Shown here in pieces: positions 289 to 23,109 of a stretch of DNA of 25,233 nucleotides. Origin of the DNA: a virus; UHGV virus genome UHGV-0079576, one strand, 5' to 3'. Below the pieces are notes generated by a model, which saw only the letters and a list, made by a program, of their open reading frames with translations, had not been told where the DNA came from and searched no databases. Positions within the stretch are counted from its first letter, which is position 1, and the number at the start of each line of letters is the position of its first letter. The translations under genes were made by a program, and so were the position numbers.

Positions 289-714
289 ATGTTTGGTATT
301 TTCAAAAAGAAAACCCGCAAGGCTATTACTGAAGTGAAGAAGATGGAGAACCGCGACGCCGTGGAAGCGACCGTCTGGGGCGCATATTCCATTGCATATG
401 CTGACGGTACCTGCGACGCGAAAGAAATCGCAGTGCTGGAGAAAACCATTGCAGCGCTTCCTTCCTTTGCGCCGTTCTCCGGTGAGATTGCCCAGATGAG
501 CGCCAATATCCGCGCCCGTTATGAAGCGTCACCTCGTAGTGCGAATGCTCAGGCTTTGCGTGAACTGGCTGATGTGGCAGGAACCGCCGAAGCGGTTGAT
601 GTGCTGTGCCTGTGTCTGGATATCGCTGACCAGGACGGCATTGGTCCGGATGAAGAAGCACAGCTCAAGAAAATTGCGCAGGCGCTGCAGTTGCCGCTGG
701 AGCAGTATCTGTGA
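289..714 (+). CDS. TerB-family (tellurite-resistance TerB-like) protein, 141 aa
   Basis: ATG at 289; all-helical sequence with two TerB-type motifs (SIAYADGTCDAKEIAVLEK and LCLDIADQDGIGPDEEAQLKKIA); overall resemblance to plasmid TerB recalled from memory. Confidence 0.6.
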   Translation: MFGIFKKKTRKAITEVKKMENRDAVEATVWGAYSIAYADGTCDAKEIAVLEKTIAALPSFAPFSGEIAQMSANIRARYEASPRSANAQALRELADVAGTAEAVDVLCLCLDIADQDGIGPDEEAQLKKIAQALQLPLEQYL

Positions 715-863
715 AAAGTGCGCGCCTTGTGCTGGCTGCCATCCTGCTGTTTCTGGTAGTGGTGGTGGATTTCACCGGACGGCTGATGTCGGTGCTGGCA
801 GATGGTGTGCTGGTGGCAATGGCGCTGGTCGTCCTCCTGCCTTTACTGCGCAAATCTGAATAA
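711..863 (+). CDS. Small hydrophobic membrane peptide (50 aa, two predicted helices), translationally coupled to the TerB-like gene
   Basis: GTG at 711 overlaps the TerB stop (GTGA); GGAG at 699-702 lies 8 nt upstream; translation VKSARLVLAAILLFLVVVVDFTGRLMSVLADGVLVAMALVVLLPLLRKSE; below the ORF-track length cutoff. Confidence 0.4.
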   Translation: MKSARLVLAAILLFLVVVVDFTGRLMSVLADGVLVAMALVVLLPLLRKSE

Positions 864-2070: not shown

Positions 2071-2268
2071 ATGCCAGTAAAGCCTAACACGACGAAAGAT
2101 AAATTTGGAGATGATCTGATGATAAAAGCAGAAACCACCCCGCAGGGGGCTGATGATGCCGCAAAAATCATCGCGGTATGCCGGGGCATCAGACACATAC
2201 TGACGCCAGTTGCATGGATTATTTGTACCGCACTGGTTGCATACACAACAATTTATTTAAACAGATGA
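2071..2268 (+). CDS. Hypothetical small protein with a C-terminal transmembrane anchor (65 aa; alternative start at 2119)
   Basis: In-frame ATG at 2071; hydrophobic C-terminus ILTPVAWIICTALVAYTTIYL; stop overlaps the next ORF start (ATGA at 2265-2268). Confidence 0.4.
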   Translation: MPVKPNTTKDKFGDDLMIKAETTPQGADDAAKIIAVCRGIRHILTPVAWIICTALVAYTTIYLNR

Positions 2269-2351
2269 GTGCTGATTTTATTCGGGCGGTGGCTTTTGCC
2301 ATTCGTCTTGTGGCGGTCGCTGTTCTGATTTGGGTTGTACGTTGGTGGTGA
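2265..2351 (+). CDS. Hypothetical 28-aa single-helix membrane peptide
   Basis: ATG at 2265 overlapping the upstream stop; translation MSADFIRAVAFAIRLVAVAVLIWVVRWW; stop TGA 2349-2351 lies 1 nt before the next ATG; not in the ORF track (too short). Confidence 0.3.
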   Translation: MSADFIRAVAFAIRLVAVAVLIWVVRWW

Positions 2352-2352
2352 T

Positions 2353-2535
2353 ATGACGCGAAAACACTGGACACACAGAATGCCGCGAACGGCGGCGAAA
2401 TGGGCACTGGTAGCGATACTGGTGCCTTTTTTCCTGGTGGGATGCGTCAGCCTGGATAAAGCGCGCCAGCTTTTCGATACAGCTTCTCAGGTCTGTGAAA
2501 TTGTCGACGGTGTTCGGCAGTGTCTGCAGAACTGA
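2353..2535 (+). CDS. Predicted small lipoprotein (lipobox LVGC; mature part about 30 aa with 3 Cys)
   Basis: ATG at 2353 (alternative ATG at 2380); signal-like KWALVAILVPFFLVGC followed by CVSLDKARQLFDTASQVCEIVDGVRQCLQN; GGTGGTG upstream. Confidence 0.45.
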   Translation: MTRKHWTHRMPRTAAKWALVAILVPFFLVGCVSLDKARQLFDTASQVCEIVDGVRQCLQN

Positions 2536-2706: not shown

Positions 2707-3006
2707 ATGATGGAAAAAACAGAAAACAAACCGATTGTAATTGGTGCTGATGCTGCTCCGTTTAAGTTTGAGTTGTCTCAACTGGTGGAGATGCGTATCA
2801 GTGATGAATGGGGTGAAGTTAAAGCCCGCGCGCAGTATGCGGATGGCGAAAACCAGTACCTGATCCACTACAAAGCTGCTGATGGTCGTGCCACAACTGA
2901 GTGGTTTGGTGAGTCAATGCTGGAAGCAACAGAAGATGATCGTCATCCTGGTTGTCCGGTATTTGCTGGTATGGAATTACCGAAAGGCGCGGTCGTTACT
3001 GAGTAA
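2707..3006 (+). CDS. Hypothetical small acidic protein (99 aa) directly upstream of cos
   Basis: ATG at 2707 with AGGAG 5-6 nt upstream; no recognisable family from sequence alone. Confidence 0.5.
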   Translation: MMEKTENKPIVIGADAAPFKFELSQLVEMRISDEWGEVKARAQYADGENQYLIHYKAADGRATTEWFGESMLEATEDDRHPGCPVFAGMELPKGAVVTE

Positions 3007-18984: not shown

Positions 18985-20460
18985 ATGTCCGGATTACATG
19001 GTGTTGAAACCATTGAACTGACGACAGGCACGGTTGCCGTGCAGACCATCTCCACGGCTGTAATTGGCCTGGTGGGGACCGCGCCGGACGCCTCCGGTGG
19101 TGTGTGTGCTTCCGGTACAGCCGGTTCGTGGCTGCTGGGAACGGCGCTGGATTTTACGGCGAAACAGGAAGGTAGGGCTGGCAATAATATTTCGGTTGTT
19201 GCTGTCGCTGCCACAAAGCAAAGCGCGCAGACAGCGGCTTCGCTGGAAGGTTCGACCCTGATGATAACGCTGGGTACGGATGAACGCAGCCAGGTTAACA
19301 CCACGGTGGCTTGTGTGATTGAGGTGGTGAATGCACTGGGTGATTCGCCAGTGACAGTGGCGGTCAGTCCACTGAATGCAGAGGGTGCAGAAAATAATGT
19401 GGTGTCGCCGTTCAGTCTGACCTTATCCGGCGGAGAGGATGAGGCGTTTCCGGTTAATACACCGGTGGTGGTGGCGGGGGCGTTAACTCAGGCCGGGAAA
19501 CTGGGCGCAGCCGGGACATTATATCCGGCCCTGCGTGATATTTTTGACCAGACAGGTGCGCTGGTGATTGTGGTGCGTGCGGAAAGCAAAACGAAGGCAA
19601 AGGAAGCAGAACAGCGCGCGGCAGTCATTCGGGCAATGGAAGCCCTGATGGAAAGCAAAGGAAAAACGGGCTACCAGCCGCGCATTCTTATCGCTACTGG
19701 TTACAGTGAGGATGATGGCGTGGCAAAGGCGCTGGAAACGTACGCAGCGAAGTTACGGGCCGTGGCCTATATAGACTCCCCCTCAATGGCAACGCCGCAG
19801 GATGTGGTTCAGCGACGTGCGTCCTTTGGCGGGCGTGTGGAGCTGCTGCGTCCGCGCGTGTCAGTGATGGATGACAGCGGGCAGACGGTATTTCGTCCGT
19901 ATTCAGCACGAGCTGCAGGGCTACGTGCCCGTATTGATTACGAAAAAGGATGGTGGTGGTCCAAGTCAAACCAGGACGTGATGAATATCACTGGACTGGA
20001 GCAGGTTGACACATTTATTCTCGGAGAGCAGAACTGCACAGTAAACCTGCTGAACATGGAAAATATCTCCACCATTATTCGCCACGACGGTTTTAAACAC
20101 TGGGGGAACCGTCTGTGCTCATCCCACAGTCAGTGGCGTTTTGAGCCGGTACGCCGTACAGCAGATGTGATTGAAGACAGCATTCAGGAGGCCATGCTGC
20201 CTTATGTCGATCGGCCGCTTGATCGGGATGTGGCAGAAGACATTCTTGGCAGTATTAATGCCTATATGCGCCAGCTTAAAAATCTGGGCGCGATCCACGG
20301 AGGCAGTGCCTGGCTGAATGATGAACTGAATACAGCAGAAACCCTGGCGGCAGGGCAGTTGTATATTGATTATGACTTTGGGCCGAAGTCACCACTGGAG
20401 CGTCTGACACTGCGGGCGATGATTAACAATAAACTGGCGCTGGAGGAGCTGACAGTATGA
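18985..20460 (+). CDS. FI: Tail sheath protein (P2 FI-like)
   Basis: ATG at 18985 with GGGAG 6 nt upstream, downstream of the terminator; collinear with P2 FI (MSGLHGVETIEL…AVIGLVGTA…RARIDYEKGWW…TIIRHDGFKHWGNR…AGQLYIDYDFGPKSPLERLTLR); track start 18937 lies upstream of the terminator. Confidence 0.95.
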   Translation: MSGLHGVETIELTTGTVAVQTISTAVIGLVGTAPDASGGVCASGTAGSWLLGTALDFTAKQEGRAGNNISVVAVAATKQSAQTAASLEGSTLMITLGTDERSQVNTTVACVIEVVNALGDSPVTVAVSPLNAEGAENNVVSPFSLTLSGGEDEAFPVNTPVVVAGALTQAGKLGAAGTLYPALRDIFDQTGALVIVVRAESKTKAKEAEQRAAVIRAMEALMESKGKTGYQPRILIATGYSEDDGVAKALETYAAKLRAVAYIDSPSMATPQDVVQRRASFGGRVELLRPRVSVMDDSGQTVFRPYSARAAGLRARIDYEKGWWWSKSNQDVMNITGLEQVDTFILGEQNCTVNLLNMENISTIIRHDGFKHWGNRLCSSHSQWRFEPVRRTADVIEDSIQEAMLPYVDRPLDRDVAEDILGSINAYMRQLKNLGAIHGGSAWLNDELNTAETLAAGQLYIDYDFGPKSPLERLTLRAMINNKLALEELTV

Positions 20461-20975
20461 TTACGGGTGAAAAAAAACTGTTGCGCGCGTGGGCGTTATT
20501 TCTTCCTGGCGGGATCCGTCTTCAGGGGGCACATGAATACACGCCGCCTGCCATTAATATCACGACAGTGGATATCAAAACCGGCGCAATGGATGCACCG
20601 GTAGCAGTGGATGATGGCATGGAAGCACTGACCTGCTCATTTAAAATTTATGGCTACGATGTTGCCATGCTGACTCTGCTGGGGTTGCAGGCTGGACTTT
20701 ATTCACCGGAGATCGTTGTTCGTCAGGCTTACCGGGTGGGGAATGCGACCAGCGGACAGGTGGAAACCCTGCAGGGGATGATCACCAGTATCACCCCGGA
20801 TGCGCGCCCGGCAACATCACAGGCTGAGGCTTCGGTGACGGTGGAAATGTCACTGAGTTATTACCGTCAGGCTGTCGACGGTCTGGAAACCATCTGCATT
20901 ATTCCGGAGGAATTTGTGCGTCGTATTAACGGCGTTAATGTTCTGTCGGATCTGAAAAAAATTATCCGGGTTTAA
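20457..20975 (+). CDS. FII: Tail tube protein (P2 FII / Mu-type tube family)
   Basis: 172 aa directly after the sheath gene (ATGA overlap); size and position as a myophage tube. Confidence 0.8.
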   Translation: MITGEKKLLRAWALFLPGGIRLQGAHEYTPPAINITTVDIKTGAMDAPVAVDDGMEALTCSFKIYGYDVAMLTLLGLQAGLYSPEIVVRQAYRVGNATSGQVETLQGMITSITPDARPATSQAEASVTVEMSLSYYRQAVDGLETICIIPEEFVRRINGVNVLSDLKKIIRV

Positions 20976-20994
20976 TCCCGGCATCCTGTCATTC

Positions 20995-21022
20995 AGGCGG
21001 CTCAGGCCGCCTTTTCTTTTTT
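20995..21022 (+). terminator. Intrinsic terminator between tube gene and tail chaperone gene
   Basis: Stem aggcggc(20995-21001)/gccgcct(21006-21012), loop tcag, then ttttctttttt. Confidence 0.6.
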
Positions 21023-21036
21023 AAAAGGAGACGATT

Positions 21037-21339
21037 ATGTCGGAAAAAAACAGTGTTCCCGCCAGCAGTGTGGAAATTGTGTTATCCGTGCCGTATGTCA
21101 CCGCATCAGGACAGACGATCACGCATGTCACCATGCGTGCGCCTACCGTCCGCGATCGTCTGTTGCATCGCCGGAGTACCAAACCGGAAGCAGAGGCTGA
21201 TCTGGATATGATTGCCGGTCTGTGCGGGATGGACGCGGCGGACATGATGAACATGGAAGCGTGTGATTACCTGACCCTGGAGCGGCAGTTCAATGTTTTT
21301 TTGCTGCCGCCGGTCCGGCGGAAGAAGAAAGCATCCTGA
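21037..21339 (+). CDS. E: Tail assembly chaperone (P2 gpE-like), zero-frame product
   Basis: 100 aa; AAGGAG RBS; position between tube and tape measure; contains slippery heptamer near its 3' end. Confidence 0.7.
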   Translation: MSEKNSVPASSVEIVLSVPYVTASGQTITHVTMRAPTVRDRLLHRRSTKPEAEADLDMIAGLCGMDAADMMNMEACDYLTLERQFNVFLLPPVRRKKKAS

Positions 21340-21476
21340 CGGCGATACGGCGCGCCGGTGCCTGGTTCGGGTGGTCTCCGGGAGATGTGATGGCGCTGCC
21401 GTATACGGATTTTGTGGCAATGATGCTGGCGGAGTCGGAAGAGAGGAAGCGATGTTATGGCAACGGTGGGCGATAA
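21037..21476 (+). CDS. E': Frameshift-extended chaperone (P2 E+E'-like) by programmed -1 frameshift at T-TTT-TTG (21297-21303)
   Basis: Heptamer T TTT TTG in the E frame; the -1 frame is open from 21303 to stop TAA 21474-21476, overlapping the tape-measure start; GC-rich palindrome ccgccgg/ccggcgg (21307-21321) begins 4 nt downstream. Confidence 0.55.
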
Positions 21477-23109
21477 CCTTAAAGCGAATATCCGGATCGG
21501 AGGTTCGATAGATCCGTCGTGGAAAAAATCGGTTGATGGACTGAAGCACGGATTATCAGGGGCAACACAGGAAGTGGCTCGCCTGACACGCCAGCAGGAC
21601 GTACTGAAACGAAAAATTCAGGCTGGTGTACTGGCAGGACAGGATATTACCGAACTGCGAAAGCAGTATGAAAAGCTGGGCAGAAAAATTCATGATGCCA
21701 CCGGGGAACAGGATAAATTTAACCGTAAGCTGGCGCGGGCAGAACGTCTGGAACGCTGGAAAGGACGGGCCGGGACGGTTCTTAAAACCGGGCTGGGGCT
21801 TTCGGTTGGTTCCGGACTGACGCTGGCAGCCGGTGCCGGCGCGGTACTGAACCGGAATGCGGAAACGGCAGAGCGGTCAGGGATAGCCCGGAGTTACGGG
21901 GTGGATTATGAAACCTATGCGGCGTGGGATTCACTGGGCCGGCAGATGGGGTTAAACGGCGAAAACATCGGTGATCTGTTTGAGGAATACCGGAACAAGG
22001 TTTTTGACGATGATAATGGTGCCAAGGACAAAGGAGCCATTCAGGACGTATTCGGTAAACTTGGGCTGAAAGCGGGTGTAATGGTCGGAAAAAACAACCA
22101 GGAGCAGGTCGAGTTTTTGTTTGAACGCTTACTGCAGGTGGAGAATGAGCAGCAGGCTGCGGGGATGGCAGATGCGTTATTTGGTGGTGAAGCCAATAAA
22201 ATCCTGACCTGGATGCGTCTGTCAGGAAAGACCTTCCAGGAACTTATCAGTGAGCAGAAACGCTATAACCTGGTGACAAAGGAAGGGGCTGATGGCGCAG
22301 TTCAGGGGCATGTGGCGTTGTCAAATTTCCGTTATGTTCTGAGTTCTTCAATTGATGAAATCAGCGGACAGCTGGGTAATGAACTTGCTCCACATATTCA
22401 ACAGGTGACGGATGACCTTGCGGCCTGGTTTAAGAATGGTGGGCTGGAAAAAATCCGGGCATTTATCCGTGATGATGCCCTGCCGGCGCTGATCGACATG
22501 GCTGCGTGGATGTGGAAATTTGGAAAAGTTCTTGCCGGAATAACGCAGAAAGCCATTGAGTGGGGGCTGGCGGATGATCCGCGAGAGGACCGACGAGAAG
22601 TGCTGGAATATCTGGCAAAAATGGGGTCGCCGGAGCTGGCGAGAGCGGTAGCGCAGAAAAACGGTCAGGGGGAGTGGTTTGATGAACTGCTCAGGCAAAA
22701 TCCGGAGCTGACGAAACAGGTTGTACAGGCCTATAAAGACACTCGCGGTTATCTCCCCTGGAATCATGATGATAAAAAGTTTGATGCTTTTCTCGACCCT
22801 TTGTTGGGGCCGAAAGAAGAACCTGATTTTAAGGCGATAAAAGAGAAATCCCGCACCTACATTGACGGACTTCCTGCAGCAGATCATGGGCAGGGTAATT
22901 CGGACCCTCTCTCGGCTCTTCAGTATACCCCCGGCAATATCAGCCAGGTGGAAGTAAAACCCACGTATCAGATACGAGCGGAATTTAACATCACCCAGAA
23001 GCCCGACGAGGATGCCGGACAACTGGCAGACAGGGTAATGAGAAATCTGGGAGATATTAATTTTGGTCAGCGTTCCCGCATGACCGATGGTGATGCATTC
23101 TGGGGGTGA
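21457..23109 (+). CDS. T: Tail tape measure protein (P2 gpT-like)
   Basis: 550 aa, coiled-coil-rich N-terminus, Gly/Ala-rich hydrophobic segment (TGLGLSVGSGLTLAAGAGAV); position after E/E'. Confidence 0.9.
   Translation: MATVGDNLKANIRIGGSIDPSWKKSVDGLKHGLSGATQEVARLTRQQDVLKRKIQAGVLAGQDITELRKQYEKLGRKIHDATGEQDKFNRKLARAERLERWKGRAGTVLKTGLGLSVGSGLTLAAGAGAVLNRNAETAERSGIARSYGVDYETYAAWDSLGRQMGLNGENIGDLFEEYRNKVFDDDNGAKDKGAIQDVFGKLGLKAGVMVGKNNQEQVEFLFERLLQVENEQQAAGMADALFGGEANKILTWMRLSGKTFQELISEQKRYNLVTKEGADGAVQGHVALSNFRYVLSSSIDEISGQLGNELAPHIQQVTDDLAAWFKNGGLEKIRAFIRDDALPALIDMAAWMWKFGKVLAGITQKAIEWGLADDPREDRREVLEYLAKMGSPELARAVAQKNGQGEWFDELLRQNPELTKQVVQAYKDTRGYLPWNHDDKKFDAFLDPLLGPKEEPDFKAIKEKSRTYIDGLPAADHGQGNSDPLSALQYTPGNISQVEVKPTYQIRAEFNITQKPDEDAGQLADRVMRNLGDINFGQRSRMTDGDAFWG

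Follow-up and report, generated by a model that had tools for sequence, protein, structure and literature searches.

An orphan lipoprotein gene at the Rz/Rz1 position of a phiP27-like prophage lysis cassette, a candidate o-spanin-like factor for the outer-membrane step

It is not yet understood how phages that lack a complete spanin get through the outer membrane. In the spanin catalogue of Kongari et al. (2018; PMC6139136), no spanin was found in 13% of genomes, and a lipoprotein without a linked inner-membrane spanin (i-spanin) was recorded in 31 genomes. The Shiga toxin 2e (Stx2e) phage phiP27 was filed there as a "separated" two-component system, in which a small lipoprotein is the singleton outer-membrane spanin (o-spanin), with a 30-residue periplasmic part that is 83% helix, and a 64-amino-acid (aa) open reading frame (ORF) at 20348-20542 is the i-spanin. 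Here, we describe the homologue of that lipoprotein, ORF3, in a 25,233-nucleotide stretch of viral DNA (UHGV virus genome UHGV-0079576), which is referred to as the window. The homologue has been catalogued bioinformatically, and the situation of a lone lipoprotein was recognised but left unexplained by Kongari et al. (2018). We propose with moderate confidence that ORF3 serves the outer-membrane step of lysis as an orphan, o-spanin-like lipoprotein, and that two small ORFs 5′ of it, ORF1 and ORF2, are separate insertions.

The window is part of a phiP27-like Escherichia coli prophage. The chromosome of E. coli M8 matches positions 1990-2720 at 100% identity, and there 45 kb around the region constitute a prophage running from integrase through tail genes, and the lysis region of phiP27 shares approximately 93% identity with that of the window. 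A sequence-only reading had described three coupled small ORFs with a lipobox and a preceding hairpin, and all of these were found at the positions it gave. The three ORFs and the parts of the third are as follows.

2071 to 2268, + strand: ORF1, 65 aa, hydrophobic stretch at residues 43-61; 35 homologue clusters
2265 to 2351, + strand: ORF2, 28 aa, one hydrophobic helix; PHROG match with E value 3.3e-6
2353 to 2535, + strand: ORF3, 60-aa prolipoprotein, last gene of the lysis cassette; full-length match to phrog_7528 (E value, 2.9e-38)
2353 to 2442, + strand: predicted signal peptide of ORF3
2434 to 2445, + strand: lipobox LVGC (L28-V29-G30-C31)
2443 to 2532, + strand: predicted mature part of ORF3, 30 aa
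2443 to 2445, + strand: Cys31, predicted to be lipid-modified
2494 to 2496, + strand: Cys48
2521 to 2523, + strand: Cys57

The stop codon of ORF1 and the start codon of ORF2 overlap as ATGA (2265-2268), and the ATG of ORF3 lies one base after the stop codon of ORF2. Codon alignments were taken from approximately 140 related loci (identified by L numbers), and the ratio of nonsynonymous to synonymous polymorphism (pN/pS) was calculated in each frame. The ratio was 0.12 for ORF1 (8 unique sequences), 0.23 for ORF2 (9 unique sequences), and 0.22 for ORF3 (40 unique sequences) in their own frames; the endolysin control gave 0.11, and both off-frames of the mini-ORFs gave 1.2-2.3 and contained stops. 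All three mini-ORFs are therefore real coding genes under purifying selection in their own frame only. Loss of the coding frames in relatives had been named beforehand as an observation that would undo the sequence-only reading; instead, the frames are conserved, with in-frame values of 0.12-0.23 and off-frame values above 1. None of the three products matched a Pfam, NCBIfam, or PADLOC family, and their PHROG matches were to families of unknown function only.

ORF3 begins with a signal sequence consisting of a basic n-region, a 13-residue hydrophobic core, and the LVGC lipobox. Its Shine-Dalgarno (SD)-like sequence, GGTGGTGA, is made by the last codons of ORF2. The start is taken to be the ATG at 2353 and not the ATG at 2380 used by the Prokaryotic Genome Annotation Pipeline (PGAP), which gives a 51-aa product, because the N-terminal RKHWTHR is kept as protein and the second Met is replaced by T, V, or I in many homologues. 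The mature part contains three Cys (31, 48, and 57) and no Pro, and has a net charge of -1. G30, C31, C48, and C57 are invariant in the family down to 35% identity. Residue +2 was Val, Ala, Thr, Ser, Gly, or Glu and never Asp in 21 family members, so the signal is of the o-spanin type and lacks the residue for inner-membrane retention. One natural lipobox-null variant was observed in an ORF1-ORF2-ORF3 locus (L228, on the same contig as L100), in which Cys31 is changed to Gly and the rest of ORF3 is intact.

A profile search of 1.8 billion representatives retrieved 23 clusters at 50% identity, all enterobacterial; the hits were small lipoproteins of the ORF3 type only, with no link to a known family, and phrog_7528 itself is annotated as "unknown function." An AlphaFold2 model from a 21-sequence alignment showed one long helix, but at a confidence (predicted local distance difference test, pLDDT, 64) too low to be of use; the mature part is predicted to be helical. 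The ORF3 profile searched against Protein Data Bank (PDB) sequences gave chance or low-complexity matches only.

The signal-peptide region of ORF3 also contains a second element.

2402 to 2433, + strand: terminator-like hairpin found by consensus scan, 11 bp with a 4-nt loop (GCGA) and a T6 tract, inside ORF3 codons 17-27

This hairpin is encoded by the signal-peptide codons for ALVAILVPFF. It is the best-conserved nucleotide block, even in homologues with 38-58% protein identity, and it is stabler than 99.5% of synonymous recodings; codons 18-26 show nearly zero synonymous variation. Rfam gave only sub-threshold terminator-like matches at the hairpin. The element may act inside the gene as a terminator or attenuator and thereby limit expression of ORF3 when Q antitermination is absent.

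The lysis cassette 5′ of the mini-ORFs consists of three genes.

952 to 1344, + strand: putative holin, 130 aa, first gene of the cassette; Phage_holin_8 (Pfam E value, 7.9e-23) and PHROG 198 "holin"
1334 to 1609, + strand: second putative holin, 91 aa, three transmembrane (TM) segments; Phage_holin_3_7 (Pfam E value, 1.5e-22) and PHROG 217 "holin"
1612 to 1989, + strand: M15 metallopeptidase endolysin, 125 aa, without a signal sequence; Pfam Peptidase_M15_4 and PHROG 465 endolysin (E value, 1.3e-74)

The arrangement between endolysin and ORF3 was counted in 80 viral contigs encoding ORF3. The gap is empty in 28 of these loci, where ORF3 starts 14 nt past the endolysin stop. A small membrane protein of phrog_1115/4493, the full 37-57-aa form of the ORF2 family, lies between the two genes in 43 loci, and ORF1-ORF2 does so in four loci as in the window. 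Four more loci carry other inserts, phiP27 itself included, and one contig is cut so that its arrangement is not scorable. In all loci examined, ORF3 comes directly 3′ of the endolysin, the location expected of an o-spanin, and where inserts are present it is the next conserved gene after the inserted small ORFs. A Phage_holin_8 gene lies 5′ of ORF3 in nearly all subfamily-1 loci. Across the family, ORF3 is found with Phage_holin_8 and 3_7 or with a lambda-S-type holin, and with an M15 or a GH108 endolysin. Among distant family members, L098 has a lambda-S-type holin, an M15 endolysin, and a spacing of 3 nt to ORF3, and L096 has a single holin and a GH108 endolysin whose gene overlaps that of ORF3. 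ORF3 is thus the fourth gene, and a conserved one, of a cassette of holin(s), endolysin, and lipoprotein that is widespread in enterobacterial prophages.

The same distribution bears on the suggestion that the trio forms one functional unit, either an atypical spanin equivalent made of all three ORFs or a membrane toxin paired with an immunity factor. The tight start-stop coupling, the membrane-directed nature of all three products, and the unchanged presence of the trio in approximately 10 viral loci would all suit such a unit. However, its parts are separable: ORF3 occurs without the other two in the 28 empty-gap loci, ORF1 occurs alone in tail regions, and ORF1-ORF2 is also found in front of Rz/Rz1. 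PADLOC returned no match, and ORF1 is predicted by the positive-inside rule to face the cytoplasm and not the periplasm. The idea of one functional set, which the sequence-only reading had put forward, is largely refuted by these distribution data, and we regard it as highly improbable.

ORF3 and Rz/Rz1 replace each other at the same site. Two sister prophages, L117 and L120, have p1115, a short ORF1, and ORF2 in common, followed at an identical TGATATG junction by either ORF3 or a canonical embedded Rz/Rz1 pair; their common junction sequence is ...TGGTGGTGATATG. The lipoprotein thus occupies the position expected of a spanin, as the sequence-only reading had supposed. Since ORF1-ORF2 also precedes Rz/Rz1, in at least 11 loci, ORF1 and ORF2 are not specific partners of ORF3. 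No other lysis-type lipoprotein was present within 4 kb of ORF3 in any of 94 loci, and Rz was found within 4 kb of none of 72 further intact ORF3 copies. The ORF3 homologue of the Rz/Rz1-bearing phage GER2 (L151 3477-3680) carries three in-frame stops. L115 and L116 contain a separate endolysin-holin cassette with candidate spanin genes, which encode an N-terminal TM protein and an overlapping lipoprotein; the ORF3 copy there (L115 3241-3516) has lost the lipobox glycine and carries a frameshift. Every ORF3 copy detected beside other spanin-type genes is thus a pseudogene, and no intact copy was found adjacent to Rz/Rz1. A survey covering 279 Shiga toxin (Stx) phages reports that Rz is absent from two phages only and that a metallopeptidase endolysin occurs in two phages, confined to cluster C (PMC8136144); these are presumably the same two phages.

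This exchange and the decay beside spanin-type genes also bear on whether ORF3 could serve in lysogenic conversion or exclusion, like the lipoproteins Bor, Cor, and T5 Llp. It would then hide a receptor or alter the cell surface and have no lysis role, and the phages would lyse without an outer-membrane step. Bor, Cor, and Llp are known as small phage lipoproteins with conserved Cys. Morons (ORF1, LT-II genes, and bor) are concentrated in the stretch from endolysin to terminase, and the terminator-like hairpin inside ORF3 would also be in keeping with this explanation. However, ORF3 is co-oriented with the endolysin at an operon-like spacing of 14 nt, 3 nt, or an overlap, whereas morons typically come with their own signals. 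The packaging and tail modules that flank the cassette vary between phages while ORF3 stays with the lysis genes, and a receptor blocker should track the tail genes. In lambda, bor lies on the opposite strand after Rz/Rz1; likewise, bor lies on the opposite strand 3′ of ORF3 in eight loci, where it is present besides ORF3. Considering the swap with Rz/Rz1 at one junction and the pseudogenes as well, a surface-modifying role without lysis seems distinctly unlikely.

An inner-membrane partner was sought for ORF3. As the sequence-only reading had noted for the cassette, no Rz/Rz1-type pair was found in the 45 kb of prophage, and ORF3 was the sole credible lipoprotein there. A scan for type II membrane proteins as i-spanin candidates gave none in this prophage and none in the complete phiP27 genome. 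No cognate i-spanin gene, whether embedded, overlapping, or adjacent, accompanies ORF3 in the window, the 45-kb prophage, or phiP27. By the defining test, ORF3 therefore does not qualify as a two-component spanin, because no i-spanin is present, and it shows neither a match to a known spanin family (no Pfam or NCBIfam match) nor a proline-rich periplasmic region (no Pro). The likeness to an o-spanin drawn in the sequence-only reading had already been published for phiP27 (Kongari et al., 2018; PMC6139136).

The i-spanin published for phiP27 (L001 3747-3941) starts with TTG, has no PHROG match, and lies on the strand opposite a 90-aa ORF with an end-to-end match to phrog_36812. The window lacks it, and only the two phiP27-type loci among the 80, L054 and L057, share the phiP27 insert between endolysin and ORF3. 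Judging from these sequence features, it is probably a false positive. The GenBank phiP27 gene L32 (L001 4029-4184) lies in another frame and overlaps the lipoprotein gene, which is thus unannotated in phiP27.

These findings weaken the explanation that ORF3 is an ordinary two-component o-spanin with an unrecognised inner-membrane partner, such as one of the "holins" or the phrog_1115/4493 peptide in an N-out/C-in orientation. Besides the listing of phiP27 as a separated system with the ORF3 homologue as o-spanin (PMC6139136), the two invariant periplasmic Cys recall the disulfides of known spanins (PMC6139136), and a type I inner-membrane protein was raised as a possible i-spanin by Kongari et al. 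(2018). The phrog_1115/4493 protein is encoded directly upstream in 43 of the 80 loci, and its acidic N-tail and basic C-end would suit an N-out topology. However, the phiP27 i-spanin is doubtful for the reasons given above, nothing at all lies between endolysin and ORF3 in 28 of the 80 loci, the small membrane proteins are found ahead of complete Rz/Rz1 pairs as well, and no single holin type is common to all family members. In addition, the joint periplasmic length of approximately 60 residues would rank as the smallest among the systems catalogued by Kongari et al. (2018). A conventional pair with a hidden partner is thus unlikely in our assessment.

Under the orphan o-spanin-like reading that we prefer, ORF3 would be lipidated and sorted to the outer membrane, where it would display a proline-free stretch of 30 residues, probably helical and containing two invariant Cys. 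After the holin and endolysin have removed the murein, ORF3 would perform or trigger the rupture of the outer membrane, replacing the Rz/Rz1 spanin without a phage-encoded inner-membrane partner. Because 30 residues cannot bridge the periplasm, a lone ORF3 would have to act after the loss of murein joins the membranes, or else perturb the outer membrane directly. With the inner membrane pressed against the outer one, disulfide-linked ORF3 oligomers might fuse the two or make them unstable; alternatively, ORF3 might perturb the membrane as colicin lysis proteins do. ORF1 would be a moron that was inserted between endolysin and ORF3 and replaced the 5′ part of a small-protein gene, and ORF2 would be the leftover membrane helix, translated by stop-start coupling and supplying the ribosome-binding site of ORF3. 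ORF1 and ORF2 are most likely small inner-membrane accessory proteins and not partners of ORF3.

Several points weigh against this proposal. The lysis role of ORF3 is suggested only by position and exclusivity, and 4 of 76 testable additional ORF3 copies were decayed with no Rz nearby. Rz was detected with two Rz queries and a generic lipobox scan, so a very divergent, distant partner or a host partner is possible. The mature part, with no Pro and only 30 residues, is unlike any characterised o-spanin; it cannot span the periplasm and, at a net charge of -1, has no cationic amphipathic character. Even its helix is a prediction only at a pLDDT of 64. Moreover, the proposal gives no account of how a lone outer-membrane lipoprotein would stay inactive until the murein is gone.

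A further-reaching suggestion, which we offer tentatively and consider possible rather than probable, is that ORF3 represents a third class of outer-membrane disruptor besides spanins and the disruptin, namely a self-sufficient, lipid-anchored peptide of approximately 30 residues with conserved disulfide Cys and no inner-membrane partner from the phage. Such a protein might fuse or destabilise the membranes after murein loss or activate a host factor, for example outer-membrane phospholipase A (OMPLA), and the oddly conserved signal peptide of ORF3 may participate.

ORF2 is best understood from its longer relatives. It matches the C-terminal part only of phrog_4493, phrog_3246, and phrog_1115 (positions 24-54 of 56, 55-80 of 90, and 32-51 of 67, respectively), while full-length relatives of 37-67 aa match these profiles end to end. 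As only the C-terminal helix matches, ORF2 appears to be a truncated member of this family whose N-terminal part is missing. It has no SD of its own and overlaps the ORF1 stop as described above. The 37-aa form of the family is indexed in 4369 blocks of a public collection. In all 10 places inspected it follows holin-holin-M15, and in 9 of the 10 the next called gene is an ORF3-sized one of 51 or 60 residues; none was called in L149. A divergent second subtype, in L107, shows the same ATGA-coupled truncation after ORF1, which indicates that the ORF1-ORF2 arrangement is maintained and is not a one-off accident. The final ORF2 codons (RWW-stop) provide the SD of the next gene, be it ORF3 or Rz.

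Two other ways of reading the ORF2 region were considered and set aside. The first, a 57-aa extension of the ORF2 frame that is annotated in some phages, is contradicted by the overlap at 2179-2262, where pN/pS was 0.11 in the ORF1 frame versus 1.19. The second concerns a T_TTA_AAC heptamer at window positions 2256-2262, which lies in the right phase at the end of ORF1, with the -1 frame being that of ORF2, and is identical in 30 loci. A -1 frameshift there would yield a two-helix fusion protein of approximately 93 aa. Such frameshifting from ORF1 to ORF2 was judged less likely than stop-start coupling; L107, without the heptamer, keeps the ATGA overlap.

The ATG of ORF1 is preceded by an SD-like GGGGA 6 nt away. 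A basic flank (RGIRH) lies on the N-terminal side of the C-terminal membrane helix, and on this basis ORF1 is probably tail-anchored with a cytoplasmic N-domain. The 35 homologue clusters (49-71 aa) are from Escherichia and Salmonella only, and all are hypothetical proteins. Homologues also stand alone in other phages, between baseplate genes, after tail-fibre genes, and elsewhere. ORF1 was also compared with Lcc6, a 65-aa lysis factor of Shewanella LambdaSo, and a relationship was rejected, as the helix of Lcc6 is N-terminal and its gene lies elsewhere in the genome. A strong hairpin precedes ORF1 in the window.

1997 to 2034, + strand: GC-rich terminator-like hairpin (-28.5 kcal/mol) followed by a U-rich tract, 5′ boundary of the ORF1 moron; the sequence after the hairpin is UUUGUGUUU

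Of five ORF1 contexts checked, four (the window, L109, L108, and L138) have a GC-rich terminator-like hairpin 35-45 nt 5′ of the ORF1 homologue, and the fifth, L130, has no upstream hairpin. Where ORF3 directly follows the endolysin, as in L007, the hairpin is missing. Because matching hairpins precede ORF1 homologues elsewhere, in unrelated contexts, the hairpin belongs to the ORF1 moron and not to the endolysin, whose terminator it had been taken for. By this comparison of contexts, ORF1 is a mobile moron gene that appears to move together with its upstream hairpin.

Other genes around the cassette were also noted. Just 5′ of the holin, window positions 289-863 encode a 141-aa TerB-family protein and, in an overlapping gene, a 50-aa DUF3927 protein with two helices; the same pair occurs at this place in many related cassettes (L006, L007, L095, and L142-L150). 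On the other side, positions 2707-3006 encode a conserved soluble 99-aa protein of phrog_1935 (unknown function), the gene of which lies 3′ of ORF3 in about half of the related loci, ahead of HNH or terminase genes. The 170-bp spacer ahead of it resembles the sequence after the lysozyme gene in L005, which points to a mosaic joint. Two IS66-family elements interrupt the prophage, one at window positions 19030-21618 and one upstream of the window (L091 12519-14935), and one of them lies between a tail-fibre assembly gene and the tail sheath gene; because of these interruptions, the prophage may be defective. Toxin genes adjoin the same cassette at differing sites in type II heat-labile enterotoxin (LT-II) prophages (L009, L092, and L093) and in Stx2e and Stx2k phages (L001 and L002). 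The stx genes are located 5′ of the holins. The LT-II genes separate the endolysin from the ORF2/ORF3 position, and neither ORF3 nor Rz is annotated 3′ of the toxin genes in Rac-SA53 and SerU-LTIIb.

The ORF3 family offers a tractable E. coli case of the question raised at the outset. Many enterobacterial prophages carry the gene, among them Stx2e, Stx2k, and LT-II converting phages. As a 60-codon gene that is common in sequenced strains and sits at the exact Rz/Rz1 junction, it suits the lambda Rz/Rz1 complementation system that is already established. Should ORF3 prove to work by itself, it would constitute a new minimal membrane-disrupting module, the published two-component assignment of phiP27 would be corrected, and there would be an explanation for how these converting phages and their toxins are released. 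If it does not, the search for a non-canonical inner-membrane partner would be narrowed to a few small genes.

Among the known systems, the disruptin phiKT gp28 is small, is not a spanin, and, as proposed for ORF3, disrupts the outer membrane in place of spanins, in an E. coli phage that has none. It differs in being cationic and antimicrobial-peptide-like with no signal or lipid anchor, whereas ORF3 has a lipoprotein signal, is predicted to be lipid-anchored, and has a mature net charge of -1. The unimolecular spanin T1 gp11 provides, as ORF3 would, the outer-membrane step from a single gene with an N-terminal lipoprotein signal, but it has a C-terminal inner-membrane TM domain and an envelope-bridging periplasmic domain of approximately 90 residues; ORF3 has neither, as its mature part ends in ...VRQCLQN with no hydrophobic segment. 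Bor, Cor, and T5 Llp are also small phage-encoded outer-membrane lipoproteins, and Llp contains structural disulfides. Their genes, however, are prophage-expressed or early, and are linked to tail or receptor genes or lie on the opposite strand, while ORF3 is operon-coupled to the endolysin and co-occurs with bor. The type 10 secretion cassettes (ChiWXYZ and YenLC) were discarded as analogues, since both spanin components are present in them.

The colicin lysis proteins (bacteriocin release proteins) and entericidin B are tiny lipoproteins with mature parts of approximately 25-33 residues and a lipobox of the L-x-G/A-C type. They permeabilise or lyse the envelope on their own, the release proteins via OMPLA, and the signal peptide of the release proteins is itself stable and active. 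They are not known to have extra conserved Cys, and they are encoded in colicin operons or on the chromosome, not in a phage lysis cassette. A Pfam scan at E values up to 1 gave no family for ORF3 and hence no match to Lysis_col or entericidin. By analogy, the mature size, lipobox type, and strongly conserved signal peptide of ORF3 recall these proteins, which may serve as a lead.

The o-spanins, such as lambda Rz1, are compared last. ORF3 differs from them in having no cognate i-spanin gene, in its proline-free mature part of 30 residues that is predicted to be helical, and in showing no similarity to a Pfam or PHROG spanin family. It resembles them in being a small, predicted outer-membrane lipoprotein with periplasmic Cys, encoded at the end of the lysis cassette and in the very slot, and at the very junction, of Rz/Rz1.

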